From Alphaproteobacteria bacterium (GTDB taxonomy: Bacteria; Pseudomonadota; Alphaproteobacteria; CAAGCB01; CAG-977): a stretch of DNA of 50,925 bases. The stretch covers positions 1 through 50,925 of the forward strand of contig JAZNBT010000045.1 of the NCBI GenBank assembly GCA_045587165.1. Reading direction: 5' to 3'. The translations under genes were made by a program, and so were the position numbers. Below, one piece after another: positions 9,179-47,196 of this stretch (position 1 is its first letter; every line of letters begins with the position of its first letter). The notes beneath the pieces were generated by a model, which had not been told where the DNA came from, ran no database searches, and saw only the letters and a program-made list of their open reading frames with translations.

Positions 9179-11671
9179 ATGTCTAAACTTTTTTCAACGC
9201 TTGTAAGTTATGCTCTGTTTTTAGGGATTTTGGGATTAATTATTCTTTTGCTGATTTTTTCACACTATGGCAAAAGCGTTGACGATTATCATCGGCTGGC
9301 GACTTACGAACCGCCGATCACCAGCCGCCTTTACGCATCGGACGGTCGGTTATTGGCCGAATACGCTGCGGAAAAAAGAGCCTTCGTCCCCTATGAAACC
9401 ATTCCCAAGCAATTGGTTCAAGCCTTTATGTCGGCGGAAGATAAAAAGTTTTTTTCGCATGGCGGCGTTGATTTTGTCGGTATTGTCCGCGCCATATTTC
9501 AAAACATCAGAAACATCGGTTCCGGCCGCAGAATGATCGGCGCGTCGACAATTACGCAACAGGTTGCCAAAAACTTTTTGCTGACAAACGAAATGTCCTT
9601 TGAACGCAAAATCAAGGAAGCCATTCTGGCAATCCGTATCGAACGGGCGTTTTCCAAAGAATACATTATGGAATTGTATTTAAACCAAATTTATTTGGGG
9701 CATTATTCCTACGGCGTAGCGGCGGCGGCATTAAACTATTTCAACAAATCTCTGGACGAATTAACGATTGCGGAAAGCGCTTTTCTGGCCGCTTTGCCCA
9801 AAGGTCCGAACAATTATGATCCGGAAAAGCGTTATGATGAAGCCATAGCGCGCCGAAACTGGGTATTGTCCCGTATGTCGGACGACGGCCACATTACCGA
9901 GGAACAAGCAAAATCCGCGATGGAAGAACCGATCACTCTGGCATCTCGTCCGGAAAAAGAAAAAGCGGCGGATGCAGAATACTTTGCAGAAGAGGTTCGT
10001 CGTTTTTTAGTATCCCGTTATGGTGAGGACGCTTTATATGAAGGCGGACTGGTCGTTCGTACAACCGTAGATCCGGAAATGCAGAAATATGCGACGCAAG
10101 CTTTGCGCAACGGATTGATTTTTTATGATCAGCGGCACGGTTTCCGTGAACCGATCGCCAAAGTCGATCTGTCCGAAGAAGAATGGTTGGACGTTTTATT
10201 ATCCGTTCAAACGCCTAACTATGCTCCGGAAAGTTGGACGCCTGCCGTTGTTTTAAACGTTGATAAGGACAAGGCCGAAATCGGTTTGAAAACGAGAATG
10301 ACGGGAACCATTCCGTTGGAAGAAATGAAATGGGCGCGTAAGAACATGCCCGATCAAACATTAGGCCCCGAAATCAAACAAGCGGATCAGGTTTTAAATG
10401 TCGGTGACGTTGTTTGGACGGAACCGGTGACGCAAAACGCCAAAAAACAGAAATACCCTGAAAACACTTACGCTTTGCGTCAAATTCCCGATGTGGAAGG
10501 AGCCATGATCGTTTTGGATCCGCATACGGGGCGCGTTTTGGCCATGGTCGGCGGATATTCGTTTAAACGCTCTCAATTCAACCGAGCCGTTCAGGCCAAA
10601 CGCCAACCGGGATCATCTTTTAAGCCGTTTGTTTATTTGGCGGCTCTGGACGAAGGATTTACGCCGTCTTCATTGATTTTGGACGCGCCGTTCGTCATGG
10701 AACAGGGACACGGCATGGGCAAATGGAAACCTCAAAACATTTCCAAACGTTTTTACGGCCCGACGACGATGCGTGTCGGCATTGAAAAGTCCCGAAATTT
10801 GATGACCGTCCGTTTAGCCAAGGCCATCGGCATTAAAAAAGTCGTCGAGTATGCCAAAAAATTCGGCATTTCAGACGATATTCCCGAACAAATGTCAATA
10901 GCGTTGGGATCCGGCGAAACAAGCGTTTTGAAACTGGCTACGGCATACGGCATGTTGGTGAACGGCGGGAAAAAGATCGAACCGATATTGATCGACCGTA
11001 TTCAAGACAGAACCGGCATAACCGTTTACAATTCGGATTCCAGACCGTGCGGAAACTGCCGGACGGAAAACGGCTGGAGCGGTGAAAACGCCCCTCAAAT
11101 TCCGGATATTCGCGAACAAATCGAAGATCCGCGCAGCGCTTATCAAATGATCAACATTCTGACAGGTGTTCTGGCTCCGGGAGGAAGCGCCCAGTCTTTG
11201 CGTTCTTTGGGGCGAACATTTGCGGGCAAGACAGGAACGTCAAACAACAGTGTCGACGGTTGGTTTGTAGGTTTGACGCCGGACTTGGTCGCGGCCATAT
11301 TCATAGGCTTTGACGAACCCAGAACGCTTGGGGCTCATGACACGGGCGGTGTCGTAACGACGCCCGTTTTCCGTGAATTTGTCCGTACGGCATTAAAGGA
11401 TCAACCGTTGATTCCCTTCCGTGTACCGGCGGGAATCCGTTTTGTCCGCGTCAACCATAAAACGGGCAAACCGGCATCGCCCAAGGATAAAGATATCGTT
11501 ATGGAAGCCTTTAAAGCCGGCGAAAACTGGCAAGGTAAAATCAAAGGTTTCATTGACGGTTCCGATGAAGAAACCGTACTGCCGCAAACGCAGGATCAAC
11601 CGGCGCAACCGGAAATCAGCCAAGCCGAAGAAGAGGACGACAACATCCCCGGCATCGGCGGCATATTCTAA
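9179..11671 (+). CDS. mrcA: Penicillin-binding protein 1A (bifunctional glycosyltransferase/transpeptidase)
   Basis: 830 aa with an N-terminal TM anchor. GT51 motifs are AEDKKFFSHGG, GASTITQQ and RKIKE. Transpeptidase motifs are SSFKP, SRN and KTGTSNN. Confidence 0.92.
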   Translation: MSKLFSTLVSYALFLGILGLIILLLIFSHYGKSVDDYHRLATYEPPITSRLYASDGRLLAEYAAEKRAFVPYETIPKQLVQAFMSAEDKKFFSHGGVDFVGIVRAIFQNIRNIGSGRRMIGASTITQQVAKNFLLTNEMSFERKIKEAILAIRIERAFSKEYIMELYLNQIYLGHYSYGVAAAALNYFNKSLDELTIAESAFLAALPKGPNNYDPEKRYDEAIARRNWVLSRMSDDGHITEEQAKSAMEEPITLASRPEKEKAADAEYFAEEVRRFLVSRYGEDALYEGGLVVRTTVDPEMQKYATQALRNGLIFYDQRHGFREPIAKVDLSEEEWLDVLLSVQTPNYAPESWTPAVVLNVDKDKAEIGLKTRMTGTIPLEEMKWARKNMPDQTLGPEIKQADQVLNVGDVVWTEPVTQNAKKQKYPENTYALRQIPDVEGAMIVLDPHTGRVLAMVGGYSFKRSQFNRAVQAKRQPGSSFKPFVYLAALDEGFTPSSLILDAPFVMEQGHGMGKWKPQNISKRFYGPTTMRVGIEKSRNLMTVRLAKAIGIKKVVEYAKKFGISDDIPEQMSIALGSGETSVLKLATAYGMLVNGGKKIEPILIDRIQDRTGITVYNSDSRPCGNCRTENGWSGENAPQIPDIREQIEDPRSAYQMINILTGVLAPGGSAQSLRSLGRTFAGKTGTSNNSVDGWFVGLTPDLVAAIFIGFDEPRTLGAHDTGGVVTTPVFREFVRTALKDQPLIPFRVPAGIRFVRVNHKTGKPASPKDKDIVMEAFKAGENWQGKIKGFIDGSDEETVLPQTQDQPAQPEISQAEEEDDNIPGIGGIF

Positions 11672-11686
11672 ACAGGAACGAAAGAA

Positions 11687-12794
11687 ATGAAAGCAGAATT
11701 ACAGGCCATTATCAATGACATCGAGCAGTCCCTCACACTGCTGAGGAGGCATCTTTGACTGGGACAACGCCCTTAACCGTTTAGACGAAATCAACTCCTT
11801 AACGGCGGACGCCGATTTATGGAATGATCCTGCGCGGGCGCAGTCTTTGTTGTCCGAACGCAACCGTTTGGAAGAATCCATTCAAACGTTCACCGCCCAA
11901 CAACAAGAACTGAAAGACACTGTCGAATTGTTGGAATTGGCCGAAATCGAAAACGATCAAGCCGTTCTGGACGAAGGAAAGGACGCGTTGGAAAACTTGC
12001 GTCGTCAGGTTCAAAAAAGCGAATTGGAAGCGTTGCTTTGCGGCGAAGCGGACAGTAATGACACCTTTTTGGAATCGCACGCGGGCGCCGGCGGCACCGA
12101 AGCGCAGGATTGGGCGGACATTTTGTTGCGCATGTATACCCGTTGGGCGGAAAAGCGTAATTACAAAGTCGAACTTTTGGAACAAAGCGACGGCGAAGAA
12201 GCGGGCATAAAATCCGCGGTCATCCGGATCAGCGGACATAACGCGTTCGGTTGGCTGAAAACGGAAAGCGGCGTTCACCGTCTGGTACGGATTTCCCCGT
12301 TTGACGCGAATGCCAGACGACATACCAGCTTTGCTTCGGCTTGGGTTTATCCTGTGATTGACGACACGATTCAGATCGACATCAATCCGGCGGATTGTAA
12401 AATCGACACGTATAGGGCTTCCGGCGCGGGGGGACAGCACGTCAATAAAACGGAATCCGCCGTTCGCATCACCCATTTGCCGACGGGAATTGTTGTTTCC
12501 TGCCAAACGCAGCGTTCTCAATTTCAAAATCGGGAAACTGCGTGGAACATGTTGCGCGCCCGTTTATACGAACAGGAATTGAAAAAACGCGAAGAACAAA
12601 GTTCCCAAATTGAAGATTCCAAATCCGAAATCGGATGGGGCTATCAGATCAGATCTTATGTATTGCAGCCGTATCAAATGGTCAAAGACCTGCGTACGCA
12701 GGTGGAGACGTCTAACGTTCGCGCGGTTTTGGACGGGGAAATCGATTTGTTTTTAGAAGCGTCTCTGGCCTCAAAAATCAAAGGAATGTCATGA
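11687..12794 (+). CDS. prfB: Peptide chain release factor 2, requires programmed +1 frameshift at 11753-11759
   Basis: Frame 0 (ATG 11687) reads MKAELQAIINDIEQSLTLLRRHL then TGA at 11756. Shifting +1 on CTT-T-GAC continues DWDNALNRLDEINS... into the 11847 ORF. SPF and GGQ motifs are present (RISPFD, SGAGGQHVNK). Confidence 0.92.
11744..11759 (+). promoter_or_regulatory. RF2 autoregulatory +1 frameshift site (internal SD AGGAGG + CTT TGA C)
   Basis: AGGAGGCATCTTTGAC: an SD-like element 3 nt upstream of the slippery CTT, followed by an in-frame TGA and C. This is the canonical prfB recoding signal. Confidence 0.9.
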
Positions 12795-13519
12795 AAAGAA
12801 TCTGCCTGTTTTTCTGTTTTTTGCTGACGTGCGGATGCATGCGGCCGATGTATGAAACGGACTATCCTTTATATCGACAATACAAATACTGGGAATCCGC
12901 CGACAAGGACTGGCAAAGCATTGATTATTTTCAAATACAGACTTTCAGGACGCAGTTCGGGAAAAAAACGGCGTTGCGTTTAGTTCCGCAGCGCGACGGT
13001 TTGCCGTCGACGCAGGACGGATATATTCAAGCGGCGCAAAAGGCCGCTTTCAATCTGATGACACAAATTTGCGATACGGCGACGCCCGCTCCCGATCAAG
13101 CTCAGGCGCCGGAAAACGGACGTACGATCGATCGATTCTTTTATCAATACGCAGACGCATCCGTCGGCATCACTTTTTCCTGCCGTTCTGGAACGCCCAA
13201 AGGATCGGATTTGGCCGCCGAACAGAAAAAATGGTCTTTGGCGGACAGACGATGGGACAGCGTTAACGGGCATCAGGCGTTTGTCGACACGTTGCCGGCG
13301 AGCGCAGACGGTCATCAACAAATCAGGATTCGCCTGTTCGGCGGAACCGTATCGGACAACAAACGTCTGGCACGCCGAGTGATCAAAGACATATGCCCGA
13401 ACACCAATTTCAGGGTATTATCCGACAAAGCGGGGTTTGATATCGTCCCGTCGGGGAAAAAGCCGGAAGTTGTTTCAGATGAGAATGTCAGGATTTATGA
13501 TTTCACTTGCGCACCTTAG
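12791..13519 (+). CDS. Hypothetical lipoprotein with an apparent internal two-fold duplication
   Basis: ATGA overlap with the prfB stop. Signal peptide MKRICLFFCFLLTCGC. The repeated pattern W-x2-AD-x2-W-x-S ... IC-x-T occurs twice. No family recognised. Confidence 0.6.
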   Translation: MKRICLFFCFLLTCGCMRPMYETDYPLYRQYKYWESADKDWQSIDYFQIQTFRTQFGKKTALRLVPQRDGLPSTQDGYIQAAQKAAFNLMTQICDTATPAPDQAQAPENGRTIDRFFYQYADASVGITFSCRSGTPKGSDLAAEQKKWSLADRRWDSVNGHQAFVDTLPASADGHQQIRIRLFGGTVSDNKRLARRVIKDICPNTNFRVLSDKAGFDIVPSGKKPEVVSDENVRIYDFTCAP

Positions 13520-13526
13520 GACTAAA

Positions 13527-14363
13527 ATGCCGGTTTTAATGCAAATCATCATCGGATTGATCATACTTTACGCATTGGCTTGCGCGATGATTTTCGTTTT
13601 TCAGCGTCGGCTGATGTATCATCCGCATTTTCACGTCAACACGCCGCACCGTGATAAAACGCCCGATTTGGAAACGGTCAAGTTACAGACAAAAGACGGA
13701 TTGGAATTGGTTTCTTATTACAAAGCGCCGCGTGTGAAACCGGACGGCGGGTTATATCCGACCGTTCTTTATTTGCACGGCAACACGGGTCCTGCGGGGG
13801 ATGCCGCCCACAAACTGATACCGATCGTTGATGCGGGATACGGTGTTTTGCTGTTGGAATACCGCGGATTCGGGCCTAATTCCGGCAAGCCGACGGAGAA
13901 GGGATTGATTGATGACGCCGAAGCCGGTCTGCGTTTCATTCATTTAAAACAAGGGACGGCGGCCGAAGTCGTGTACTACGGCATGTCCATGGGGACGGGT
14001 GTTGCGAACGGATTGGCGGAAAGGCATGCGCCGTCCGCAATGATTTTGGAATGTGGCTTTACATCCATGACGGATGCGGCGAGCCATCATTATTTTATGT
14101 TTCCGGTTCGATATATGATCAAAGACACCTTTGATTCCAAGCGCCGGATTCAATCGCTGCGATCGCCGTTATTGGTATTGCACGGGGAAAGGGACCGGAC
14201 GGTCCCTGTCGATCAAGGCAAAGAAATGTTTGCGACGGCGCCCGTTGCGGATAAGACGTTACGGCTGTATCCGGATGCGTCGCACGTTAATTTGTATGAT
14301 TTCGGGGCAAGTGACGATATCGTGGAATGGCTGAACGACCGTTTTTTTACCGTGAGCATGTAA
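13527..14363 (+). CDS. Alpha/beta hydrolase (BAAT/DLH-like serine hydrolase), N-terminal membrane anchor
   Basis: ATG 13527 lies just after the upstream stop. TM helix MPVLMQIIIGLIILYALACAMIFVF. HGNTG oxyanion region, nucleophile elbow GMSMG, then LHGERD and a C-terminal His. Confidence 0.8.
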   Translation: MPVLMQIIIGLIILYALACAMIFVFQRRLMYHPHFHVNTPHRDKTPDLETVKLQTKDGLELVSYYKAPRVKPDGGLYPTVLYLHGNTGPAGDAAHKLIPIVDAGYGVLLLEYRGFGPNSGKPTEKGLIDDAEAGLRFIHLKQGTAAEVVYYGMSMGTGVANGLAERHAPSAMILECGFTSMTDAASHHYFMFPVRYMIKDTFDSKRRIQSLRSPLLVLHGERDRTVPVDQGKEMFATAPVADKTLRLYPDASHVNLYDFGASDDIVEWLNDRFFTVSM

Positions 14364-14438: not shown

Positions 14439-14486
14439 AAAAAAACTCCCCCGTTTATAAGAAACCGAAGCATCTTTAAGGGGGAG
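14439..14486 (-). terminator. Putative rho-independent terminator of the pilV-like operon
   Basis: On the minus strand: CTCCCCC ... GGGGGAG followed by TTTTTTT. The loop is long (27 nt), so support is only moderate. Confidence 0.45.
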
Positions 14487-14601: not shown

Positions 14602-15426
14602 TTACGACCCCGCGAATTTCACAGCCGGACATACCTCTGCCGACGATCCGGCGGCCAGATTTTCCCCCGGCCCCAAACCTGCGACCAAAGACAGCGCGAC
14701 GATATAACTTTTGCTTTGCAAATTATCGCCCAAAACAGATGTGACCTCATCATTCAGCGGAAAATTACACGTAATGTAATTGGGGATATACACGCTGTTG
14801 ACCGGAGCGACCCCGCTGGACAAGATATAATAGGACGCCCCCAACGGCTGATGCTGTGTCGCCGCCGTTCCCGCAAAGGGGGCTACGTCTTTTTGCAGCA
14901 TGCCGACGAATCTGGATTTTCCCGTTGCTTCGGAAACTTGGCGCAAGGCGGTCATTTTATCCGCCCCGTCGTATCTGGCGGGAATGGCGCGCAGAGTGAC
15001 AATGTATTTGACAACGGCCGAATTATTACAGCGGACACTTGCCGCCGCCTGATTTTTATCCACACAGAACAGATAACTTCTGGTTCCGTTCTGGGGTTTG
15101 TATGTATTGGGTATCCGTCCCTGAATGTACGGGAAAACCGTATTGGCGGCTCCACTCAGTCCGACACCGGAAATGGTATTGTTCGTAACGGTTGCCAACG
15201 GCACGATCCCGTCCGTCGCGGCGTTAAAATATGTGTTTGCCGTTTCCGGAGCCAAACGCATAATATCCAAATACCCGTACTGTACGGCGACATGCTGTTG
15301 ATACATGCTGAGCGCCATCGCCTGATATACCGGCGCAACGAAGTTTTCCTGAGGTTTCGTCTGTTCGCGCAGATTGCCGAACATTATCACCCCCATTAAC
15401 GAGGCCAACATCATCCAGAAAAACAT
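14602..15426 (-). CDS. Membrane-anchored hypothetical protein co-transcribed with the giant pilin-like gene (possible PilM-like accessory)
   Basis: 274 aa. AGGAGGA Shine-Dalgarno 7 nt upstream of the ATG, which lies 37 nt after the upstream stop. Single N-terminal TM (MFFWMMLASLMGVIMFG) and 4 Cys. No family confidently recognised. Confidence 0.7.
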   Translation of the reverse strand: MFFWMMLASLMGVIMFGNLREQTKPQENFVAPVYQAMALSMYQQHVAVQYGYLDIMRLAPETANTYFNAATDGIVPLATVTNNTISGVGLSGAANTVFPYIQGRIPNTYKPQNGTRSYLFCVDKNQAAASVRCNNSAVVKYIVTLRAIPARYDGADKMTALRQVSEATGKSRFVGMLQKDVAPFAGTAATQHQPLGASYYILSSGVAPVNSVYIPNYITCNFPLNDEVTSVLGDNLQSKSYIVALSLVAGLGPGENLAAGSSAEVCPAVKFAGS

Positions 15427-15463
15427 GGCGATTTCCTCCTTTTACTTCATTGCGCCCGCAAAA

Positions 15464-18400
15464 TTACAGATCCGGATTTTCCGCCGTATGGATCATTTTT
15501 CCGCCCAAGCCCAAGTCATCATCCTTGAGGACCATATTCGGCATTGTGAATCTTGCCGGATTAAAATAGCAATACGTATGGGCGATGGCCGACCAACTGT
15601 TTGCGGGAACGCCGCCGACGTTCCAGATATACCCGTCCGTATTGATTTTGGTACTGGCCGCAGTCACCGTCCCCATGGCGATTCTCCAACCGAGAACACT
15701 GGTACCCGACATAACGGGTTCGACCACCATTCCCAATTTGGTTCCCTGCTGCATGATACCGGTTACGCTTGTGATATTTTCGTCGGCATAATTTTGCCAT
15801 CCTGGGTTATATCGGACATAGGCCGTATTCGGTTTTTTGTCTGCCACGAACTGAAGCTTGCCCAATTCAAAAACAGTCGGCGTAACTGTAATGACCGCCT
15901 GATACCCGTCGGGACAATAACCTTCGTCAAAAGCGGCAAGAGAGCCTGCGCCTGAAAGATCAGAAGAACCCCCTATAAGAGTACCATCACTTGCCTGAAT
16001 CTTTCTTCCCGGCGCGGGGACTATCCCCATAAACGGATGCGCCCAACAAAATTTCCCTTCCGGACATTCCATATAAGAAGCTGCGTAATGAGAAAACTCT
16101 ACGTATTTCTGGGTTGCTGCCGCATATTCGACCGTTCCGTCATCGCCGTCACAAGATCCGCCACCGGCCACTATGGGGTGTTTTCCTTGGTCCAATCCGC
16201 CCGCGCCGCAGTGAAAATCCCAACCGCCGTTGGTTAATCCCAAAGCGTTCATTGAATAATACGGAACTCGATAGGTACAGTTATCCTGTTCTCTCTTTAC
16301 GTCCGAGGTATAGGGATAATTTAAAGGATCCGAAGGACCTCGGCAAGGCCAATGACCCGACCCGTAGCTGTTTGACAGTTCATAAATCCCCTTCAGGATA
16401 TAGTTCGGCAACGCTTCGCTTAATCTGGCGCCGCCGCGCGATGTCAGTTTGATGTCGTTCATAACGGACGTATAGGACGGGTCGAGAAGGTAATTTCTGA
16501 GTTTAGACCCCCCGTCGTTATTATCAGCTTGATGAACGTTATACGGTCTTATGCCGTTGTCTGCGGATGTATCTATCCCTACAGCAGCATCGGAGGCAGT
16601 GATGTCGCCCGACGACTCCGTTGTTTCCCCTGTTTCCCCGTTGACGTTTAGTTTTGCCCGAGAGCTGTACCGACTGCCCAGATAAGCAAACGTCTTTCTT
16701 GGGGAAGTACCACCTGTCTGAAGGGTTTTATTGACAACGCTCATTTGAACTATGCCGCCGTCGCCCTTCAACGAATCCGCCAATATCTGAATATTGGAAT
16801 GCGTACCGCCAGACGTGTCATAAGACCCTATATTTAAAGTATACGCGGTATTGGTCAATTGAAATGATGATTTACTTACTCCGTTATTGTAAACATTGGC
16901 GAGCACTGCCGTTTCAGATGCATACACCCCAGCTCTGGAACCTAATGATCCCTGCGGCATAAAATTCGAACTTGACGGGGTGCCGTCGGCGCTACCCGTT
17001 TCCATCCCTACATAGCTGCCCTGATTCACAAAGAACGCTCCCGTCCTGGTAGCAAGAGTAATGTACTCGCCATTCATATGCAACGCCGATCGGGATGAGC
17101 CGGTTGTGTGTGTTTGCAAAAGTAAGGATTGATTCCCGACCAAAGTCGCTCTGCTCTTGTCAAGCTGCAAATGAGTAGGAGCATCAAGGTCGGTGCCAAT
17201 CTCTTCCTCCGTATTCAGAGCATAACCCGCCGCCAATCTGACGGTCTCTCCGGCGGAAACATCAACATGACCATAATCCGACACCGTAGAATTCAAAACG
17301 ATATGAGATCCGGACTCCGCCATAATACCACCACCTGTGCCATCGGCGCCGATGGCTGTCATTTCAATGAATTTCGTTTCAACATCAAAACTAGTCCCCG
17401 CATTTACAACAAATAGCTCATCCGCATACGTCTGGATACTGTGTGCGGAATCCAGATAAATATCCGAAGTTGCTTCGTTAGAGATAAGCTCAATACCATT
17501 CTTTGACACGGTCACAATAGCGTTAGTGTAGTTGCTGTTCCCCGCCTCTCCGGCCCCTATGACCACAGAGCCGTTCATTATATTCATCCCTGCCACAGCT
17601 CCGCTGTTTGCCTGTTGATACAGGTCGGTGTTCCAAGCCGTCAGGTTCAGAAAAGATCCTTCGGTTGCGTTCGGACCGGCATAAAGCTGAACCAAGGTAG
17701 ACGTATTTATATGGGAACTGTCCGTCGCCAACGCGATTTTCGCGTATGTATTTCCGGACGAAAGTCCCTGATCATCATTCGTATTTTGGGATCGGATCAG
17801 GATTTTACCCCCGATGACTTCCAATCCGCCGGCGTTGTTGATTTTATGGCACCCGTTTCCGGAACAGTTCGTGGCACCGCCCATGTCCAAATCCGTAAAC
17901 ATGGAATTGGCGTCCGGCAAACCGTCCACCTGTTTTCTGTAAAGGAAATCGCCCGAAAAACCCGAAGAATAAATCGTCGTCGCCGCAACCCTGCCGCCCT
18001 TTGTCGTATCGATCGCATTCCCGAAATAATTGGTCGTGTCCCCTTCCCAAATCCCTTGAGCGCCCATGATTTTCTGCATTTCGGCTCCGGCAGCGTTCGC
18101 ATACAAAGAGTTAACCAGATTGGCCGTCCGCATGTACCCGCCGTCCGCACCGATCATCGTCGCGATACGCGCCGCCCGTTTGTCGTCGATTTCATCATTC
18201 GATTTAGACAGGACAACCCCCGTCATTTTATAACGCGAACATTTCGAATTCGCCGGATTGGTGGGAACGGCCGTCCCGTTGGTCATGGAATAACATCCGC
18301 TGGCTATCGTACACGGATTACCGTCATTGCGCGCAACCTCCGTACACTGGGCGCGAACACCGACATCAAAATCGTCCATCAGCTTGTTGCCGCGAAATGC

Positions 18401-18715
18401 ATTACCCTCCAAATGCGACGCCGGCAGATAAGGCGCCAACATCTCCGCATTGACGGTAAAATGCGTGTCCGTCAGATTACCGGTCGCAAATTCGTTCGCC
18501 TTGGAACGGTAGTTCGCTTCGATCCAGTTGCTCAACGCTTCCTTTAATTCCGTCATCTGTCCGGCAATGGTCACTTCCTCCATTTCGGAAGTACGTTCCG
18601 CCGTTTGACGCACAATCATCGGCGACATCATGGTCATCAAACCCAACAGCGCTATCGCTTCAATCATCAACGCGCCGCGTTCATTGCTTTGTTCGTTATT
18701 CCGGTGCGTAAACAT
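15464..18715 (-). CDS. Giant type IV pilin-like protein: prepilin-type leader plus PilV/shufflon-N-like domain plus about 800 aa of unrecognised extension
   Basis: 1083 aa. AGGAGGG Shine-Dalgarno upstream of the ATG. The leader NERG|ALMIEAIALLGLMTMMSP has Gly at -1, Glu at +5 and a hydrophobic helix. The motif DFLYRKQVDGLPDANSMFTDLDMGG...KINNAGG resembles the conserved block of R64-type PilV as I recall it. Residues 290-790 are Cys-free and G/S/T/N-rich. The C-terminal domain has 8 Cys. Confidence 0.75.
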   Translation of the reverse strand: MFTHRNNEQSNERGALMIEAIALLGLMTMMSPMIVRQTAERTSEMEEVTIAGQMTELKEALSNWIEANYRSKANEFATGNLTDTHFTVNAEMLAPYLPASHLEGNAFRGNKLMDDFDVGVRAQCTEVARNDGNPCTIASGCYSMTNGTAVPTNPANSKCSRYKMTGVVLSKSNDEIDDKRAARIATMIGADGGYMRTANLVNSLYANAAGAEMQKIMGAQGIWEGDTTNYFGNAIDTTKGGRVAATTIYSSGFSGDFLYRKQVDGLPDANSMFTDLDMGGATNCSGNGCHKINNAGGLEVIGGKILIRSQNTNDDQGLSSGNTYAKIALATDSSHINTSTLVQLYAGPNATEGSFLNLTAWNTDLYQQANSGAVAGMNIMNGSVVIGAGEAGNSNYTNAIVTVSKNGIELISNEATSDIYLDSAHSIQTYADELFVVNAGTSFDVETKFIEMTAIGADGTGGGIMAESGSHIVLNSTVSDYGHVDVSAGETVRLAAGYALNTEEEIGTDLDAPTHLQLDKSRATLVGNQSLLLQTHTTGSSRSALHMNGEYITLATRTGAFFVNQGSYVGMETGSADGTPSSSNFMPQGSLGSRAGVYASETAVLANVYNNGVSKSSFQLTNTAYTLNIGSYDTSGGTHSNIQILADSLKGDGGIVQMSVVNKTLQTGGTSPRKTFAYLGSRYSSRAKLNVNGETGETTESSGDITASDAAVGIDTSADNGIRPYNVHQADNNDGGSKLRNYLLDPSYTSVMNDIKLTSRGGARLSEALPNYILKGIYELSNSYGSGHWPCRGPSDPLNYPYTSDVKREQDNCTYRVPYYSMNALGLTNGGWDFHCGAGGLDQGKHPIVAGGGSCDGDDGTVEYAAATQKYVEFSHYAASYMECPEGKFCWAHPFMGIVPAPGRKIQASDGTLIGGSSDLSGAGSLAAFDEGYCPDGYQAVITVTPTVFELGKLQFVADKKPNTAYVRYNPGWQNYADENITSVTGIMQQGTKLGMVVEPVMSGTSVLGWRIAMGTVTAASTKINTDGYIWNVGGVPANSWSAIAHTYCYFNPARFTMPNMVLKDDDLGLGGKMIHTAENPDL

Positions 18716-19044
18716 GGCTACCCTCCTGTTTTTCCTGTCCGCGTGCTTCGCGGCGACCTTTCACAAAACCCTTTGTCGAAACAAAACCGCAAAACGGCGG
18801 ATACAATTCGGGCTTTGACCTTTTATGCCATTTTAAAGTTAAAAAATCCGCCAAAGCAACGAAAAATGTATATATCTGACGTTATAATCCGCTGAAATCC
18901 GCCGTTTTTCCGAAATATATAACCAAAGTCATAGATTCAATAAATCATTGAAAAACAATAAAAATATGTTTTTAAAACAAAAGGGAACTTTTTTATCCTT
19001 CAAGAAAAAAGTTTGATTTTTCAACGATCGGCATAAATAAAAAA

Positions 19045-38842: not shown

Positions 38843-38919
38843 CGGAGTGTAGCTCAGCTTGGTAGAGCACTACGTTCGGGACGTAGGGGTCGTAGGTTCA
38901 AATCCTGTCACTCCGACCA
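38843..38919 (+). tRNA. tRNA-Pro (anticodon CGG)
   Basis: The cloverleaf folds by hand. Acceptor CGGAGTG/CACTCCG, D arm GCTC..GAGC, anticodon stem CTACG/CGTAG with loop TTCGGGA, T loop TTCAAAT, encoded CCA. Confidence 0.9.
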
Positions 38920-40583: not shown

Positions 40584-40607
40584 TGTTACCCATATGTTAC
40601 CCACGAA
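40584..40607 (+). repeat. Tandem TGTTACCCA motifs (11-bp phasing), putative arm-type integrase binding sites upstream of int
   Basis: TGTTACCCA occurs at 40584 and 40595. The 13-mer TGTTACCCACGAA (40595-40607) is identical to 45900-45912. Confidence 0.55.
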
Positions 40608-40634
40608 ACAATGCGTAAAACAGGAGAAATGCTT

Positions 40635-41921
40635 ATGAAAATCAGTAAAAAGACCATAGAAAATTTGAAATTTGACGGCAAAGAACGGCTTTTTTTCGAT
40701 GATTCGCTAAAAGGTTTCGGTGTTCGCGTCCGCAAAGACAGCTCAAGTTATATCGTTATGTATCGAAATAATCACGGACAGCAACGGAAAATGACTATCG
40801 GCAAAACGTCGGGCATAACACCGACCGAAGCGCGGGAACAAGCGCGCAGGATTTTAGCCGATGTCGTGCGCGGCGATGATCCGCATATCGAGAAAATCGA
40901 GACGCGCCACGATTTAACCGTTCCCGAACTTGTCCAATTTTACATTACGGAACGGCAAGCCGTTTTTAAGAACGCGACCAAAGAATACTATGAAAGGGTT
41001 TTGCGAACACGCATAAAGCCTTTGTTGTCCGACCTTTATATGAAAGACGCGAAGACAAGGAACATACAAAAGTTCTACGACGCTATTATGGCGGGTAAAA
41101 GCCTTGCGCCGCAGTATTGTAAAAATCCGGCTCAAAAACATATCGCCTTTGCGAACAGTGCCGTTCAGTTGATAAGCACGGCTTACGAATATGCGATCTC
41201 GCAGGAAATGGCGACATTTAATCCGTGTTCGCATATCAAGCGCGTTCCGACGCCGAGCCGTCGTTTCTTTCTTGACGACAAAGGGCTAGTGCTGTTCGGA
41301 AAGACTTTGAACGGGATAGAGTATTCCAAAAAACTCTATATTGACGCTATCCGTTTGATTGCTCTGACCGGTTGCCGGAAAAACGAAATACTGAAATTGA
41401 AGTGGAAATATATCGACTTTGACAATCAGCTTTTCCGTTTTCCTGACACAAAAACGGGGGCGCAAGACAGACCGTTCGGAAGCGCGGCTAAACGGTTTAT
41501 GCAGGAACTCAAACAAAAATTAAACCGGCAATCAGAAGACGAACTGATTTTCGGGGAAAACAAACAAGCCTCGAAAAAGGTCGAACATTTGTTCGGCTCT
41601 TATATCAAACGTGTTCCCGGATTGGAGGGACTTATGCCGCACGGTTTAAGACACACGTTCGCTTCAATGGCGGCGGCATTGGGGTATTCGGACACGGTTA
41701 TTTCGTGTTTGGTCGGGCATAAATTAAGCACGATGACAAGCCGATACACTCATTTGACGGATACCGTCCGAACCGCTGCCGCAAACGCCGTGAGCGAAAG
41801 AATAGCCGCGCTTATGGACGGGAAAGACGGCTCTGCGGGAAATGACAACAGAGTTTCAACGCGGAACCGTGAACCGGATGAAACAGAGTTCAACAGAACG
41901 GAAGTTTCGTCGGCGGGGTGA
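40635..41921 (+). CDS. int: Tyrosine recombinase, P4-type integrase with N-terminal arm-binding (DUF4102-like) domain
   Basis: AGGAGA Shine-Dalgarno upstream of ATG 40635. The N-terminal LKGFGVRVRKDSSSYIVMYR block is present. Catalytic residues are seen in LTGCRKNE (R), HGLRHTF (H-x-x-R) and GH...SRYTH (H, Y). Confidence 0.9.
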   Translation: MKISKKTIENLKFDGKERLFFDDSLKGFGVRVRKDSSSYIVMYRNNHGQQRKMTIGKTSGITPTEAREQARRILADVVRGDDPHIEKIETRHDLTVPELVQFYITERQAVFKNATKEYYERVLRTRIKPLLSDLYMKDAKTRNIQKFYDAIMAGKSLAPQYCKNPAQKHIAFANSAVQLISTAYEYAISQEMATFNPCSHIKRVPTPSRRFFLDDKGLVLFGKTLNGIEYSKKLYIDAIRLIALTGCRKNEILKLKWKYIDFDNQLFRFPDTKTGAQDRPFGSAAKRFMQELKQKLNRQSEDELIFGENKQASKKVEHLFGSYIKRVPGLEGLMPHGLRHTFASMAAALGYSDTVISCLVGHKLSTMTSRYTHLTDTVRTAAANAVSERIAALMDGKDGSAGNDNRVSTRNREPDETEFNRTEVSSAG

Positions 41922-42026
41922 TCCAAGAGGGGCGAAGTCCCTTTGGCAAGTGGGCAGAAGAAATTCTGCCCTAACTTGCTATGGCAGATTTTTTTCTGCC
42001 GTGGAAAAGAACCGGGAGCAAGAACA
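41920..42026 (+). promoter_or_regulatory. Candidate oriT / mob promoter region
   Basis: Two inverted repeats lie directly upstream of the MobV relaxase gene: GGGCAGAA-gaaa-TTCTGCCC (41952-41971) and GGCAGA-N6-TCTGCC (41983-42000). Confidence 0.4.
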
Positions 42027-43205
42027 ATGGCGCATTTGGAAAAATACCCGAAAGCGGGATTAAGTCATCTTTTGAAGCATAACGAACGGACGGAACGGGA
42101 TTGCCACGTCAACCGGTCGAACAAAAACATCGTTTCCGAACGGACGCATTTGAATTACAACCTTGCGCCCGAAACTGGAATGTCAATGCACGAAGTTTTG
42201 AAAAAGCGACTGTCCGAAGTCCGTCTTTACAACCGTCCGGACGTGAATGTTATGGGCGATTGGGTCATAACAAAACCGAAAGATGTCAAGAACGAAGATA
42301 CGGAAAAGTTCTTTAAGGCGGCTTATGAATTTTGCCGCGACAGATACGGGGAAAAGAATGTTGTCGGTGCGTTCGTTCATATGGACGAATGCACGCCGCA
42401 TTTACATTTCAGTTTTGTTCCCGTGGTCGTTGACAAGAAAAAGCACAATGAAAAAGTCTGCTTTCAGGAATGTTGTCCGCGTCGTGATTATCAGACGTTT
42501 CACCCGGAACTGTCAGCGCATATTGAAAAGGCATTGGGGTATCAGGTGGAAATCCTGAACGAAGCGACACGGGACGGAAACAAGGAAGTCATCGCGTTGA
42601 AACGGGAAACATTCATTCGGGAGTTTGAACGGGAGAAAGCGGAACGGGAACGGATATGGGAGGAAGTTAAAGCCCGACAACAGAGGGCTTTGGAAGAGGT
42701 TGAAAGAAAACTTCAAGCCAAGCGGAACGATCTGGAAGTCTTAACGCGGGAACACTGCGTTTTAGATGAGATTATGCGGACGCGATTCAATGTCCCCGCC
42801 GGAGTGGAACACTACAAAAGCTTTTTGGGCGGTTCAATGGTTCGTATGCCGGCAGAAACATTTGAAATGATGAAAAGCCGTTTGGACGCGGCGGATAAAA
42901 TCCAGGTCGTTTCCTATTTTGATCGGAACAGGTATCGCGAACTAATAAATCTTGACAGCTACAAGGAAATCCGCAAAGCGACGGCTGAAACGGAGGCGGC
43001 AAAGAGGGAAACGGCGGATTTGCGGCGGGAATATGACGCTTTCATCGAACGGACGAACAAGAATTATTCTTTCTTCAAAAGCTTTCTTGAAGCGCGTCCG
43101 GAATGGAAAAAGGAGTTCCTGCGACAGCGTGAGGAGTTGGCGCGGTCGCAGGAAAACCGTTCCAGAAATTACGGACGGGAACAATCAAGAGGACGCGAAA
43201 GGTAA
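42027..43205 (+). CDS. MobV-family (Mob_Pre) relaxase
   Basis: Start MAHLEKYPKAGLSHLLKHNER...THLNYNL parallels the pMV158 MobM N-terminus. The HxDE..PHxH motif is VHMDECTPHLHFSFVP. Coiled-coil Glu/Arg-rich C-terminus. Confidence 0.85.
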   Translation: MAHLEKYPKAGLSHLLKHNERTERDCHVNRSNKNIVSERTHLNYNLAPETGMSMHEVLKKRLSEVRLYNRPDVNVMGDWVITKPKDVKNEDTEKFFKAAYEFCRDRYGEKNVVGAFVHMDECTPHLHFSFVPVVVDKKKHNEKVCFQECCPRRDYQTFHPELSAHIEKALGYQVEILNEATRDGNKEVIALKRETFIREFEREKAERERIWEEVKARQQRALEEVERKLQAKRNDLEVLTREHCVLDEIMRTRFNVPAGVEHYKSFLGGSMVRMPAETFEMMKSRLDAADKIQVVSYFDRNRYRELINLDSYKEIRKATAETEAAKRETADLRREYDAFIERTNKNYSFFKSFLEARPEWKKEFLRQREELARSQENRSRNYGREQSRGRER

Positions 43206-43334
43206 AAGGTGCGAGAGACTTCAAGATCAAAAAAAGGAAATTGAATGTGAATAATTTATTCGTAAAAGTGAACAAAATATTGCTTTTTAGCTTTCTATAT
43301 GCTGTATTATAATGTGTTTATATGGATTGGGTCA

Positions 43335-43559
43335 ATGGTGGTTAATTACAATAAGCTCTGGAAGCTTTTGATTGATAAAGGCATTACAAAAACGGAAATG
43401 CGTAAACGTGCGGGGATCAGCACAAGCGTTTTAGCTAAAATGGGAAAAAACGAAACGGTTTCTATGGATACATTAACGCGGATTGCATCTGCGATGAACT
43501 GCGGTTTTGATGATATTGTAGAGATAAAAGGCGAGGATAGAAACAATGACGCAGAATGA
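43335..43559 (+). CDS. Small XRE/Cro-type HTH protein, putative controller (C) protein of the R-M module
   Basis: About 74 aa from MVVNYNKLWKLLIDKGITKTEMRKRAGISTSVLAKMGKN.... Its 3' end overlaps the methyltransferase ATG by 14 nt. Confidence 0.65.
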   Translation: MVVNYNKLWKLLIDKGITKTEMRKRAGISTSVLAKMGKNETVSMDTLTRIASAMNCGFDDIVEIKGEDRNNDAE

Positions 43560-44835
43560 ACCTATTCGTTTCATTGACTTGTTCGCAGGAATAGGCGGAA
43601 TAAGGAAAGGCTTTGAGCTTGCGTGTGCTGATAGACATATAAACACAGAATGCGTTTTCACGTCAGAAATAAAGTCTTATGCGATAGATGTCTTAAAACA
43701 AAATTATCCAAGCGAAGATATATACGGGGATATAACGCAGATTATGGCGACAGATATACCCGACTTTGATTTTTTGCTTGCGGGTTTTCCTTGCCAAGCG
43801 TTTTCTGCTGCTGGGAAAAGATTAGGATTTGAAGATACAAGGGGAACTTTGTTTTTTGAAGTCGCTCGTATTTTAAAGGAAAAGAAGCCATTTGGTTTTA
43901 TTCTCGAAAATGTTGAGGGGCTTGTAAATCACAATCGGCTAAATAAAAATGATAAAATTGGAAAAACGCTTTCAACAATTTTACAGACCCTTGATGAACT
44001 AAATTATAAGGTTTCGTGGAGGGTATTGAACGCAAAGGATTTTGGCGTTCCACAAGATCGAAAAAGGATTTATATTGTAGGAACGAAAAAAGAAGCTCCT
44101 AATTTAGAAAAATTCCAACGAGTAAAAAAGTACTTAAAAGATATTCTTGAATGCGGCAAAACCATTTCTACAAGTCCCTTTGTTAAACTCGTATTAAGTC
44201 ATTATTCCATAGAAGATCTCTATGGTAAGTCTATAAAAGATAAGCGTGGTGGTGAAAACAATATTCATAGCTGGGATATTGAGTATAAAGGAGCAATATC
44301 ACAAGAGCAAAAAGACCTTTTGAACACTATGCTTAAGGAACGCAGAAAAAAGAAGTGGGCAGAAGAGTATGGTATCGACTGGATGGACGGAATGCCGTTG
44401 ACAGTAGATCAGATAAAAACTTTCTATAACCATCCAGATATTGAAACAATGCTTTCCGATCTCGTCAAGAAAGGCTATGTCAAAATGGAGTATCCGAAAA
44501 AGAAAATTGGAAATATGCGTGTTCAAGATACAACACTTCAAAAAGGATATAACATTGTCGCTGGAAAAATGTCGTTTGAAATTAACAAGATTCTTGATCC
44601 AAAAGGAATCGCCCCTACGCTGGTCGCTATGGATATGCAAAGGTTGTTCGTGGTTGATGGTGTTGGTTTAAGAACACTAACCTTACGAGAAGGATTGCGT
44701 TTATTTGGTTATCCAGATACCTATAAATTTGATACTTCTATTGAAAATGGTTACGATCTTTTGGGTAATACCGTGGTTGTTCCCGTTATCAAAGAAGTAG
44801 CAAACCGAGTTTTAGATGTTTACTGCGAGGTGTAA
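43546..44835 (+). CDS. DNA (cytosine-5)-methyltransferase
   Basis: 429 aa. Motif I FIDLFAGIGG, motif IV GFPCQAFS, motif VI ENVEGL, motif VIII QDRKRIYIVG, motif X GNTVVVPV, with a long variable target-recognition region. Confidence 0.92.
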   Translation: MTQNEPIRFIDLFAGIGGIRKGFELACADRHINTECVFTSEIKSYAIDVLKQNYPSEDIYGDITQIMATDIPDFDFLLAGFPCQAFSAAGKRLGFEDTRGTLFFEVARILKEKKPFGFILENVEGLVNHNRLNKNDKIGKTLSTILQTLDELNYKVSWRVLNAKDFGVPQDRKRIYIVGTKKEAPNLEKFQRVKKYLKDILECGKTISTSPFVKLVLSHYSIEDLYGKSIKDKRGGENNIHSWDIEYKGAISQEQKDLLNTMLKERRKKKWAEEYGIDWMDGMPLTVDQIKTFYNHPDIETMLSDLVKKGYVKMEYPKKKIGNMRVQDTTLQKGYNIVAGKMSFEINKILDPKGIAPTLVAMDMQRLFVVDGVGLRTLTLREGLRLFGYPDTYKFDTSIENGYDLLGNTVVVPVIKEVANRVLDVYCEV

Positions 44836-44839
44836 CAAA

Positions 44840-45580
44840 ATGAGACTAACAGCCCAACAGGTTTATGATAAATTAGTAAACGAAGACAGGATTCTTGAAT
44901 TACAAGGGCAAATTAAATTTTTCTTTGGCGATGTTGATATTATTGTCAAACAAAAGGATGTCGTCGGGAATATAATTCAAGAATGGCTTCAAGGTTGGTT
45001 CGATAAACGCGGTATTGAATATGCTCCATCAGAAAATACACAAATGCCGCCGGATTTTTTTCTGAATCCAGATGATAGGACGGTAAATCTGTTAGAAGTA
45101 AAGGCTTTTAACCGTTCAGCAAGCCCTGGTTTTGATATTGCAGATTTTCGAATGTATGAAGAAGAAATAGTAGATAAACCTTATATGCTAAATGTTGATT
45201 ATTTAATCTTTGGCTACGATATGAGCGATGACGGCGTTGTAACGGTAAAAGACCTTTGGTTAAAGAAAGTATGGCAAATAACGCGTTGTATGGATGACTG
45301 GGCAATCAATTTGCAAATAAAACAGAATGTCGTTCATAAAATTCGCCCTGGTGTTTGGTATAGCACACAAAGAGTAAGATTTCCCATGTTTTCTCGCCTT
45401 GAAGATTTCATTTCAGCTATTGAGCAAACTGTTTGGCAAAATCCGAAAACACGCGACCAATCTGGAACTTGGAAAAGGCGTTTTTTGGAAAGTTATGAAC
45501 GTCATTATCATATTCGATTGGATATTCCACGTTGGGATGATATAGCGGAAAGATATAGAAACGATAGTGTTCGGGATTAA
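44840..45580 (+). CDS. Type II restriction endonuclease (PD-ExK fold), cognate to the adjacent m5C methyltransferase
   Basis: ATG 44840 follows a GAGG Shine-Dalgarno, 4 nt after the methyltransferase stop. A PD...EVK motif is present (MPPDFF ... LLEVKAF). Specificity not determinable by eye. Confidence 0.65.
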   Translation: MRLTAQQVYDKLVNEDRILELQGQIKFFFGDVDIIVKQKDVVGNIIQEWLQGWFDKRGIEYAPSENTQMPPDFFLNPDDRTVNLLEVKAFNRSASPGFDIADFRMYEEEIVDKPYMLNVDYLIFGYDMSDDGVVTVKDLWLKKVWQITRCMDDWAINLQIKQNVVHKIRPGVWYSTQRVRFPMFSRLEDFISAIEQTVWQNPKTRDQSGTWKRRFLESYERHYHIRLDIPRWDDIAERYRNDSVRD

Positions 45581-45617
45581 AAGAAAAATGCGGGATAAAA
45601 TCCTGCATTTTTCTTTT
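45579..45617. terminator. Strong bidirectional terminator between the restriction gene and alpA
   Basis: 17-bp stem AAAAGAAAAATGCGGGA / TCCTGCATTTTTCTTTT with one G-T pair and loop TAAAA. Confidence 0.75.
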
Positions 45618-45622
45618 AGAAT

Positions 45623-45844
45623 TTAGTTTTTAATACCGCTTGCCCTATACGCCTCCGATAATTGTTCGTCTATCCAAGCGTTCAAATCCTCGACGGCATA
45701 AACTACTTGTTTCGTTCCGAACTTTCTAAATTTCGGACCGCCGCCGATTGAAGCGTATTTTGCCAAAGTTTTTTCGGAACGCGACAAACCTTTTTGTGCC
45801 AGATATGCCGCCGCTTGTTTTCTGCTTAAAAAAAGTCTTTCCAT
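45623..45844 (-). CDS. AlpA / excisionase-type HTH protein
   Basis: 73 aa. FLSRKQAAAYLAQKGLSRSEKTLAKYASIGGGPKFRKFG...VVYAVEDLNAWI fits the AlpA/Xis (HTH_17) pattern. It sits at the element end opposite int. Confidence 0.8.
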   Translation of the reverse strand: MERLFLSRKQAAAYLAQKGLSRSEKTLAKYASIGGGPKFRKFGTKQVVYAVEDLNAWIDEQLSEAYRASGIKN

Positions 45845-45888
45845 TGTTCACCTCTTTATACCCGTTATCGAACCTGTTTTCGATATGC

Positions 45889-45912
45889 TGTTACCTTTTT
45901 GTTACCCACGAA
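45889..45912 (+). repeat. Second pair of TGTTACC motifs (11-bp phasing) in the right arm
   Basis: TGTTACC at 45889 and TGTTACCCACGAA at 45900, in the same orientation as the left-arm pair. Confidence 0.55.
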
Positions 45913-47108: not shown

Positions 47109-47196
47109 GCGGATATGGTGGAATGGTAGACACAACAGACTTAAAATCTGTTGAGGCTTTGTCCTCGTGCGGGTTCAAGTCCCGCTTTCCGCACCA
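47109..47196 (+). tRNA. tRNA-Leu (anticodon TAA)
   Basis: 88 nt. Acceptor GCGGATA/TTTCCGC with one mismatch, D arm GTG..CAC, anticodon stem ACAGA/TCTGT with loop CTTAAAA, a long variable arm, T arm GCGGG-TTCAAGT-CCCGC, and CCA. Confidence 0.85.

Follow-up and report, generated by a model that had tools for sequence, protein, structure and literature searches.

A probable giant PilV-type minor pilin with a conserved partner gene in uncultured gut Alphaproteobacteria

Tip adhesins of the PilV type and large minor pilins of type IVb pili are both known, and together they are the closest described systems to the gene pair analysed here. PilV is encoded by IncI-type and related plasmids (e.g., R64 and TP114), belongs to the Pfam family Shufflon_N (PF04917), and carries the NCBI name 'shufflon system plasmid conjugative transfer pilus tip adhesin PilV'. 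CofB of the CFA/III pilus of enterotoxigenic Escherichia coli (ETEC) and TcpB of the TCP pilus of Vibrio cholerae are the single minor pilins of their pili, large proteins that combine a pilin domain at the N-terminus with beta-rich domains at the C-terminus. Both are about half the size of the 1083-amino-acid (aa) protein described below. Modular type IV pilins, such as PilB and PilC of Streptococcus sanguinis, fuse a pilin domain to a functional module. The 1083-aa protein would share with them the concept of extra C-terminal domains displayed on the filament; its own modules have no annotated family. Trimers of CofB and TcpB are reported to sit at the tip and to initiate assembly (PMC7248040; see also PMC5207764). 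Here, we analyse a 50.9-kb stretch of alphaproteobacterial DNA (contig JAZNBT010000045.1, positions 1–50,925; 'the window' denotes this whole stretch), in which two adjoining genes on the minus strand encode a 1083-aa protein and a 274-aa partner. In our view, the larger protein is likely to be a PilV-type minor pilin of greatly increased size that belongs to a chromosomal type IVb pilus in an uncultured gut alphaproteobacterium.

The protein shares several features with plasmid PilV. Both have an N-terminus of the form G/xxxxE (the slash marks the cleavage site) followed by a hydrophobic helix, a pilin-like domain of ∼300 residues with a D(F/Y)LYR..V.G.P..N.M.T.(L/I)DMGG block, and a run of Gly/Val/Thr/Asn-rich repeats after this block; in one relative (locus L012), the gene also lies downstream of pilus assembly genes. 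The two differ in size and in what follows the pilin domain. At 1083 aa, the window protein is more than twice as long as most of the three classical PilVs that we fetched (458, 466, and 544 aa), which bears out an earlier note on this sequence that had singled out its unusual size. A shaft of ∼400 residues is inserted in the giant form, and the signature motif and C-terminal domain beyond it are absent from all three classical proteins. The giant form is also chromosomal and, in most genomes, unlinked from its machinery.

The N-terminus of the 1083-aa protein reads MFTHRNNEQSNERG/ALMIEAIALLGLMTMMSP, with Gly14 at position −1 and Glu19 at +5. This is the architecture of a class III (prepilin) signal, in which a charged leader ends in Gly at the junction ERG/ALMIEAIALLGLMTMMSP and is followed by Glu at +5 and a hydrophobic helix, and it predicts cleavage after Gly14 by a prepilin peptidase. 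Among 47 homologue sequences the leader is variable, but R13, G14, L16, and E19 are invariant, and the mature N-terminus from residue 15 onward (ALMIEAIALLGLMTMMSPMxVRQTA) is almost so. The N-terminal domain is conserved up to residue ∼340, with a nearly invariant LYR block at residues 256–297 (DFLYRKQVDGLPDANSMFTDLDMGGATNCSGNGCHKINNAGG); D256, L258, Y259, R260, P267, A269–T274, L276–G279, and A295–G297 are invariant in 121 sequences. Because Gly(−1), Glu(+5), and most of the block are invariant in these 47–121 homologues while the leader varies, the prepilin signal and the LYR block are more than chance resemblances. An AlphaFold2 model gives residues 40–250 a predicted local distance difference test score (pLDDT) of ∼80–93, and its helix at residues 13–78 packs on a sheet in a pilin-like manner.

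Four independent comparisons, all of them at the level of sequence, agree in showing that residues 1 to ∼300 are homologous to the PilV constant region, a likeness that the earlier note had described correctly. First, a tblastn search with residues 1–345 against 72,556 plasmids listed 12 places, all of them PilV-type open reading frames (ORFs; 10 annotated pilV and two unnamed). These matches together span residues 3–336, and the best come from Plesiomonas (E = 4e-7, residues 12–299) and Serratia (1e-4, residues 3–315). Second, BLASTP against the Plesiomonas PilV (5e-14) aligns ERG/ALMIE with KNG/FTLIE, and DFLYRKQVDGLPDANSMFTDLDMGG with DFLYRSAVPGKPELNRMNTDLDLGG. Third, two plasmid loci with 233 ORFs between them were searched with a hidden Markov model (HMM) of the family's N-terminal domain, and the two PilV ORFs alone matched (1.5e-10 and 3e-9, computed at Z = 1e6). 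Fourth, relatives match Shufflon_N: P0086 passes the Pfam cutoff (32.5 bits vs. 27.5) over profile positions 106–214 of 324, the LYR block included, and six of 45 members of the wider family match this model, the best with an E-value of 1.7e-13. One family member, P0185, already carries the automatic NCBI name PilV.

The large gene and its partner form a conserved module. The large protein has 196 homologues, nearly all 950–1130 aa long, and the few that are named are hypothetical proteins from metagenome-assembled genomes (MAGs) of Alphaproteobacteria. A species-level genome collection holds the family in 23 loci from 21 genome bins, and in 22 of these 23 loci the partner gene comes immediately after the large gene (the exception is L017). 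A survey of co-occurrence and homologue length had been suggested on first reading of the sequence, and this is its outcome, with large homologues of ∼950–1130 aa. The intergenic gap is 37 nt in the window, so the pair is probably co-transcribed.

The partner has 46 homologues of ∼240–300 aa, none with a Pfam family. It starts at Met1 with a hydrophobic helix, and its four Cys residues are invariant. Its AlphaFold2 model (pLDDT 89.9) consists of a helix at residues 2–58 followed by a beta sheet, a layout that looks pilin-like, yet a leader, Gly(−1), and Glu5 are all missing from the protein. Foldseek found no match to this model in the PDB, where only tRNA synthetases appeared, at E > 0.2; the Tt1218-like pilin family gave a weak match (E = 0.18) in two of 45 partner homologues. 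The gene order had initially been read as pilV followed by pilM. Profile searches do not support this: PilM (PF07419) matches neither the window partner nor, even at E ≤ 10, any of the 45 homologues.

A Pfam scan of the 50.9-kb window found no pilus machinery genes, in agreement with the earlier note, which had therefore described the pair as an orphan. That description is true of the window only; in relatives, the machinery is encoded elsewhere. In L012, a 315-kb contig of MAG HGM16787, a type IVb operon is followed directly by the pair, with 640 nt between PilR, its last gene, and the large gene. The operon encodes a TcpQ-like protein, the secretin PilN, PilO, a 479-aa protein without a family, the T2SSE ATPase PilQ, and the T2SSF protein PilR (pilL/N/O/Q/R). 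That the pair might close a conventional pil operon had been raised as a possibility at the outset, and in this one relative it does; such a placement is absent in the window, and other bins have the operon on another contig. The 640-nt spacer of L012 between PilR and the large gene (9350–9990) contains near-identical repeated segments, e.g., 'CCCGTCATTGCGAGGAG(T/C)GGAACGACGAAGCAATCC' and 'GGTGGGCTGTTTTTAACCGCAAGCGAAGATTTGCCCGCGATTTCAGGTCGGCG'.

Scanning the genome collection with the L012 PilQ revealed orthologues at least 82% identical on other contigs in at least 19 of the 21 family-carrying bins. This figure is a lower bound, as DJPN01 and CALXTY01 are not among the 80 loci listed in the scan. 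Bins with the operon include CALYBD01 (the window's closest relative), CALXOZ01, and JAFVAT01. Seven bins viewed in detail have the same seven-gene operon, which ends at PilR and is followed by housekeeping genes. The operon is located at ∼1000–4700 in L037, L032, L044, L036, L033, L030, and L041, and at 186–3478 in L072; it begins with a membrane protein of 720–800 aa and has a 480–540-aa protein between PilO and PilQ, neither of them assigned to a family. Divergent genes for VirB2/TrbC-like and VirB3-like proteins lie upstream of the pil operon in both MAG groups, and VirB4 was confirmed in L072.

Major pilin genes were also found. A PilS-type pilin (PF08805, 1.6e-15) follows PilR in more distant MAGs, and a DNA pattern for G/RSM[IV]EMLGV located ∼190-aa pilins in at least four family-carrying bins (DJRZ01, CALXYE01, DJSW01, and CAAGEK01), in each of which the PilS gene stands alone among housekeeping genes. 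In four loci, a gene for a PilT-like ATPase is found at a distance of 5–6 kb from the pair. Pilus genes are thus scattered in this lineage, and the PilV-like pair is one piece of the set. Since the pair is joined to the pil operon in L012 and the operon lies on other contigs of the bins, the orphan aspect dissolves and the unusual size remains.

Beyond the N-terminal domain, the middle of the protein (residues ∼346–740) is hypervariable. Identity is 3–31% per 25-residue block (mostly 5–16%), indels are many, and the length ranges from 303 to 425 residues among homologues. Even where N-terminal domains are ≥97% identical, identity in the middle has a median of 68% and a minimum of 25%; in 29 pairs, the N-terminal domains are ≥90% and the C-terminal domains ≥80% identical, yet the middles are <35% identical. 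This pattern of divergence would fit segment exchange or diversifying selection. The middle is probably a beta-helical shaft, as the earlier note's description of it as beta-solenoid-like had suggested. Its fold is predicted from relatives: DUF2345 (the VgrG C-terminal beta-helix) matches the middle in 16 of 47 (best 7e-9), P0098 exceeds the DUF2345 threshold (36.1 bits vs. a cutoff of 30.7), and further matches are to Bactofilin (3.9e-8), the FapA beta-solenoid, and LbH. The middle of the window protein itself has no Pfam match, DUF2345 included, and a weak VgrG match in the PDB has E = 0.13. The likeness to VgrG is to a type of repeat and is no proof of common descent, and there is no type VI secretion context. 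Hydrophobicity autocorrelation of the shaft showed no clear period. The monomer AlphaFold2 model has low confidence across the middle, as would be expected if the fold needs several chains, although this proves nothing. Classical PilVs carry short repeats of Gly/Val/Thr/Asn behind their LYR block, and the Microvirga protein (544 aa) has a longer run of them than the others; the shaft therefore looks like an expansion of a feature already present.

The shaft ends at a signature motif that reads SVMNDIKLTSRGGARLSEALPNYILKG. Residues 751–775 have a mean identity of 96%, and the almost invariant motif shows no change in 121 sequences; in most distant relatives among those listed from the 376 representative clusters, it is also the stretch that matches best. 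The C-terminal domain that follows (residues 791–1083) is conserved, together with its Cys residues, and modelled with a pLDDT of ∼65–90. The large protein has 14 Cys in total (124, 135, 141, 159, 284, 289, 791, 813, 836, 855, 884, 890, 934, and 1049): six before residue 290, none in 290–790, and eight thereafter. Neither whole-family nor C-terminal domain profiles found a sequence relative in the PDB, the matches being a low-complexity artefact, the weak VgrG match, and a kinase. Foldseek of the large-protein model against the PDB and BFVD returned only matches with template modelling scores (TM-scores) ≤0.1, which we treat as uninformative for that reason. The first reading of this domain as one that could be assigned to no family therefore stands. 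In one relative, P0251 (966 aa), a Sec signal and BspA-type leucine-rich repeats (LRR_5, 3e-89) replace the pilin domain and precede the family motif and C-terminal domain; the domains may be genuinely fused, or else the metagenome contig is chimeric.

The family is broad within its lineage. Of the 23 loci in the genome collection, 22 are titled as uncultured Alphaproteobacteria or Rhodospirillales-type MAGs, and L014 was deposited as Limosilactobacillus gorillae. Isolate labels, where given, name rumen or horse faeces, and one record was deposited as 'Acetobacter sp. CAG:977'; this group probably corresponds to the RF32-type lineage of the gut. A profile of the motif and C-terminal domain, searched against 1.84 billion representative proteins, matched 376 clusters at ≤1e-3, 314 at ≤1e-10, and 41 at ≤1e-30. 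Among the proteins listed, 109 are ≥800 aa long (median 1064, maximum 2171); the N-terminal domain HMM matches 105 of them as well, and 103 keep a prepilin-type N-terminus. All named members of this wider family are Alphaproteobacteria MAG proteins. In L228 and L230, the large gene has housekeeping neighbours and an adjoining gene of partner size, which matches the partner HMM in L228 (2e-54) and does not in L230.

Several variants depart from the common length. L072 encodes a short form of 570 aa that matches the N-terminal domain (8e-16) and the C-terminal domain (7e-19) and has no shaft; it adjoins a partner-like gene whose product begins MFFW and lies 4 kb from the pil operon. Given this shaftless form, the giant form looks like a shaft insertion between two older domains. 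P0183, P0184, and P0186 are 2111–2171 aa long, with the motif and C-terminal domain starting near residue 1700, and P0183 has a prepilin-type N-terminus. In L022 (MAG UBA3864), the large protein is split between two ORFs, 9221–10474 (the N-terminal domain) and 10632–13973 (the rest), through either a frameshift (a pseudogene) or an assembly error.

Orientation varies as well. Relative to the same flanking genes, the module is inverted in L001, L003, L008, L018, L019, and L020 as compared with the window and L002; an alpha/beta hydrolase gene lies on one side, and a gene for a 240-aa membrane protein or a radical SAM protein on the other. We considered an invertible phase-variation switch and rejected it: there are no flanking inverted repeats beyond chance, so the inversion is evolutionary and not phase variation.

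From these observations, we propose the following model. A prepilin peptidase would cut after Gly14, and the hydrophobic alpha-1 helix with Glu5 would anchor this PilV-like region (residues 15 to ∼300) at the top of a pilus of the PilS type. This pilus would be assembled by pilL/N/O/Q/R machinery encoded elsewhere in the genome, beside VirB-type type IV secretion genes. The tip projection would then comprise a strain-variable beta-helical shaft of ∼400 residues, the near-invariant motif, and the conserved, disulfide-bonded C-terminal head, through which another cell would most likely be contacted. On the precedent of CofB and TcpB, the protein probably forms a trimer at the tip and primes assembly, an idea that also draws on the VgrG-type matches. 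The partner, probably co-transcribed, may be a membrane-anchored, disulfide-bonded accessory that is required to fold, load, or complete the tip complex. The earlier note's other option, a pilin-like secreted effector, is one for which we found no evidence.

Several results weigh against this model. The window protein matches no Pfam model (N_methyl and Shufflon_N included) and no NCBIfam model (PilV included) at E ≤ 1, and the Shufflon_N matches of relatives span just about one third of that model. The profile search envisaged at the outset thus gave a divided answer, no match for the window protein itself and scores above the Shufflon_N threshold for relatives such as P0086. The AlphaFold2 monomer has a mean pLDDT of 61, and both the LYR block and the signature motif are of low confidence. 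Unlike plasmid PilV, the protein shows no shufflon, rci gene, or alternative C-terminal segments: flanking or internal inverted repeats do not exceed chance, and no recombinase gene adjoins the pair. The conserved head and variable shaft reverse the arrangement of classical PilV, in which the C-terminus varies. PDB profile searches and Foldseek gave no significant sequence or structural match to CofB, TcpB, VgrG, or tail fibres. A phmmer search with a Serratia A24 prepilin peptidase found none in the 230 fetched loci. Finally, the machinery of the window's own genome is an extrapolation from relatives.

Which cell the head would contact is a separate question, and two answers, each of them possible and neither of them probable, can be given. 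The first is that the pilus and its giant PilV serve the adjoining VirB-type type IV secretion system (T4SS) and hold donor and recipient bacteria together in the gut as R64 and TP114 PilV do, with the variable shaft or the head setting recipient specificity; this is a sub-case of the enlarged-PilV model in which the target is a bacterium. Classical PilV proteins are conjugation adhesins (for TP114, see PMC9045228), and the PilV homology of the N-terminal domain and the divergent VirB2, VirB3, and VirB4 genes beside the pil operon in both MAG groups point the same way. However, the genes of the pil operon, of PilS, and of the pair belong to the chromosomal core, where they are scattered in conserved housekeeping synteny, with no recognisable plasmid or integrative and conjugative element. 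No shufflon accompanies them, the 10-kb flanks of the operon showed neither a relaxase nor a coupling protein, and a target on the host surface is equally compatible with the data.

The second answer, about as tentative as the first, is a host-adhesion fibre in which the Cys-rich head binds a conserved host ligand (e.g., mucin or another glycan) and the exposed shaft varies under immune (immunoglobulin A) or phage pressure, much like the central domains of flagellins. The gut MAGs that supply all loci are from humans, ruminants, horses, or rabbits, the paired Cys residues would suit an extracellular protein, and the shaft is hypervariable even at N-terminal domain identities of ≥97%, while the N- and C-terminal domains are conserved. 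Against this, Pfam and PDB profile searches recognised no lectin, vWA, or Ig domain in the head, and shaft variation could equally reflect phage or recipient specificity. Overall, the adjoining T4SS and the PilV precedent point to bacteria as the target, and the gut origin, conserved head, and variable shaft would fit a host ligand equally well.

A more elaborate proposal, which we regard as doubtful, is a distinct pilus-tip organelle. Here, three PilV-derived pilins would form a strain-variable, VgrG-like triple beta-helical spike with a disulfide-bonded head, matured by the partner, with which uncultured gut Alphaproteobacteria would seize other cells and bring them to the neighbouring VirB-type T4SS. 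If true, this would amount to a tail-fibre-like device on a retractile type IVb pilus.

Two further readings fare worse. It is improbable that the region from the SVMNDIK motif onward is not a binding head and instead acts, on the model of the Peptidase_S74 domains of phage tail spikes, as an intramolecular chaperone that trimerises the beta-helix and is then cut off. The motif is near-invariant, sits exactly at the junction of shaft and C-terminal domain, and has Ser and Lys a few residues apart, and one weak Foldseek match (E = 0.05) is to a phage protein with an intramolecular chaperone auto-processing domain. However, the dyad of Peptidase_S74 is S-x4-K, from which the Ser–Lys spacing of the motif differs; no family member matches the Pfam Peptidase_S74 model, the Foldseek matches have TM-scores ≤0.1, and a strongly conserved domain of 330 residues with eight Cys exceeds what a chaperone needs. 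Least credible of all is an ordinary Sec signal-anchored, membrane-tethered periplasmic or surface protein that resembles PilV by convergence: the Pfam N_methyl, Shufflon_N, and NCBIfam PilV models do miss the window protein and the window has no pilus genes, but the similarity to PilV spans ∼300 residues, well beyond the helix, Gly(−1) and Glu(+5) stay fixed in homologues whose leaders differ, and the pair is physically joined to the pil operon in L012 and co-occurs with machinery in at least 19 bins.

The features of the locus are collected in Table 1. Every element first read from the window (both ORFs, the prepilin-type N-terminus, the LYR block, the Cys pattern, and the two AGGAGG sites) was recovered. 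The hairpin past the partner gene has a fold energy of −18.3 kcal/mol (z-score −1.8) and could plausibly be an intrinsic terminator of the pair; a consensus terminator scan did not list it because its loop is long.

Table 1. Positions of the pair and its parts in the window
Feature	Position	Strand	Remarks
Gene of the 1083-aa PilV-like giant minor pilin (probable)	15464..18715	-	Whole ORF including stop codon; 196 homologues
Leader peptide, residues 1–14, ending in Gly14	18674..18715	-	Predicted prepilin peptidase site G/ALMIE, Glu at +5
Pilin-like N-terminal domain, residues 15–345	17681..18673	-	Homology to PilV constant region; helix and sheet in model
LYR...DMGG...INNAGG block, residues 256–297, with C-x4-C insertion	17825..17950	-	Core of Shufflon_N similarity
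Hypervariable middle, residues ∼346–740	16496..17680	-	Cys-free, Gly/Ser/Thr/Asn-rich; probably beta-helical shaft
Signature motif, residues 742–790, LLDPSYTSVMNDIKLTSRGGARLSEALPNYILKGIYELSNSYGSGHWP	16346..16492	-	Cys791 comes next; conservation among homologues
Cys-rich C-terminal domain, residues 791–1083, 8 Cys	15467..16345	-	Conserved; no known relative
Gene of the 274-aa partner	14602..15426	-	N-terminal hydrophobic helix from Met1 (MFFWMMLASLMG), 4 invariant Cys
AGGAGG Shine-Dalgarno site of large gene	18722..18727	-	6 nt upstream of ATG; read from sequence
AGGAGG Shine-Dalgarno site of partner	15435..15440	-	8 nt upstream of ATG; read from sequence
Hairpin (UCUCCCCC...GGGGGAG) followed by U7	14441..14486	-	∼115 nt past the partner's stop codon

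By Pfam, the rest of the window comprises housekeeping genes and one small mobile island. The housekeeping genes include those for H+-PPase, RNase E/G, an amidase, PBP1A, RF2, HPPK-DHPS, ABC exporters, and phospholipid synthesis, and the neighbouring genes keep their order in relatives, at 56–91% identity. Between RF2 and the alpha/beta hydrolase lies a conserved lipoprotein-like ORF of 242 aa (12791–13519; its product begins MKRICLFFCFLLTCGC), which has no Pfam family and is syntenic in all close relatives. The island (40584–45912) is a 5.3-kb integrative mobilizable element of low GC content (36–40%), edged by 24-nt direct repeats (40584–40607 and 45889–45912) that are 88% identical. It carries a tyrosine integrase (40611–41921), a Mob_Pre relaxase (41943–43205), a C5 cytosine methylase (43546–44835), and an NgoBV-type restriction endonuclease (44816–45580). 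This integrase is the only one in the window and belongs to the island, not to the pair. The window also contains tRNA-Pro (38843–38919) and tRNA-Leu (47109–47196).

A literature search returned no account of this combination of features and nothing relevant on the pili of these gut Alphaproteobacteria. What appears to be new is the combination itself: an architecture of ∼1000 residues, a hypervariable shaft, the motif and Cys-rich head, the partner, and a scattered chromosomal pilus regulon beside a T4SS. PilV-type pilins reach far beyond the plasmid adhesins of 430–550 residues, with a chromosomal form of ∼1000 residues in more than 300 sequence clusters and one member of more than 2100 residues. 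Almost all of these proteins are labelled 'hypothetical', and the loci in the genome collection come from MAGs of gut and rumen. Two domains, one formed by the signature motif and Cys-rich head and the other by the partner, lack any structural or functional assignment. For genome scans, the lesson is that a pilin gene seemingly orphaned within 50 kb can be one part of a pilus regulon dispersed over the genome; in this lineage, the pil operon, the genes for PilS and the PilT-like protein, and the PilV-like pair are each isolated among housekeeping genes. The family also hints at how a lineage that has never been cultured attaches to its hosts or to other bacteria.

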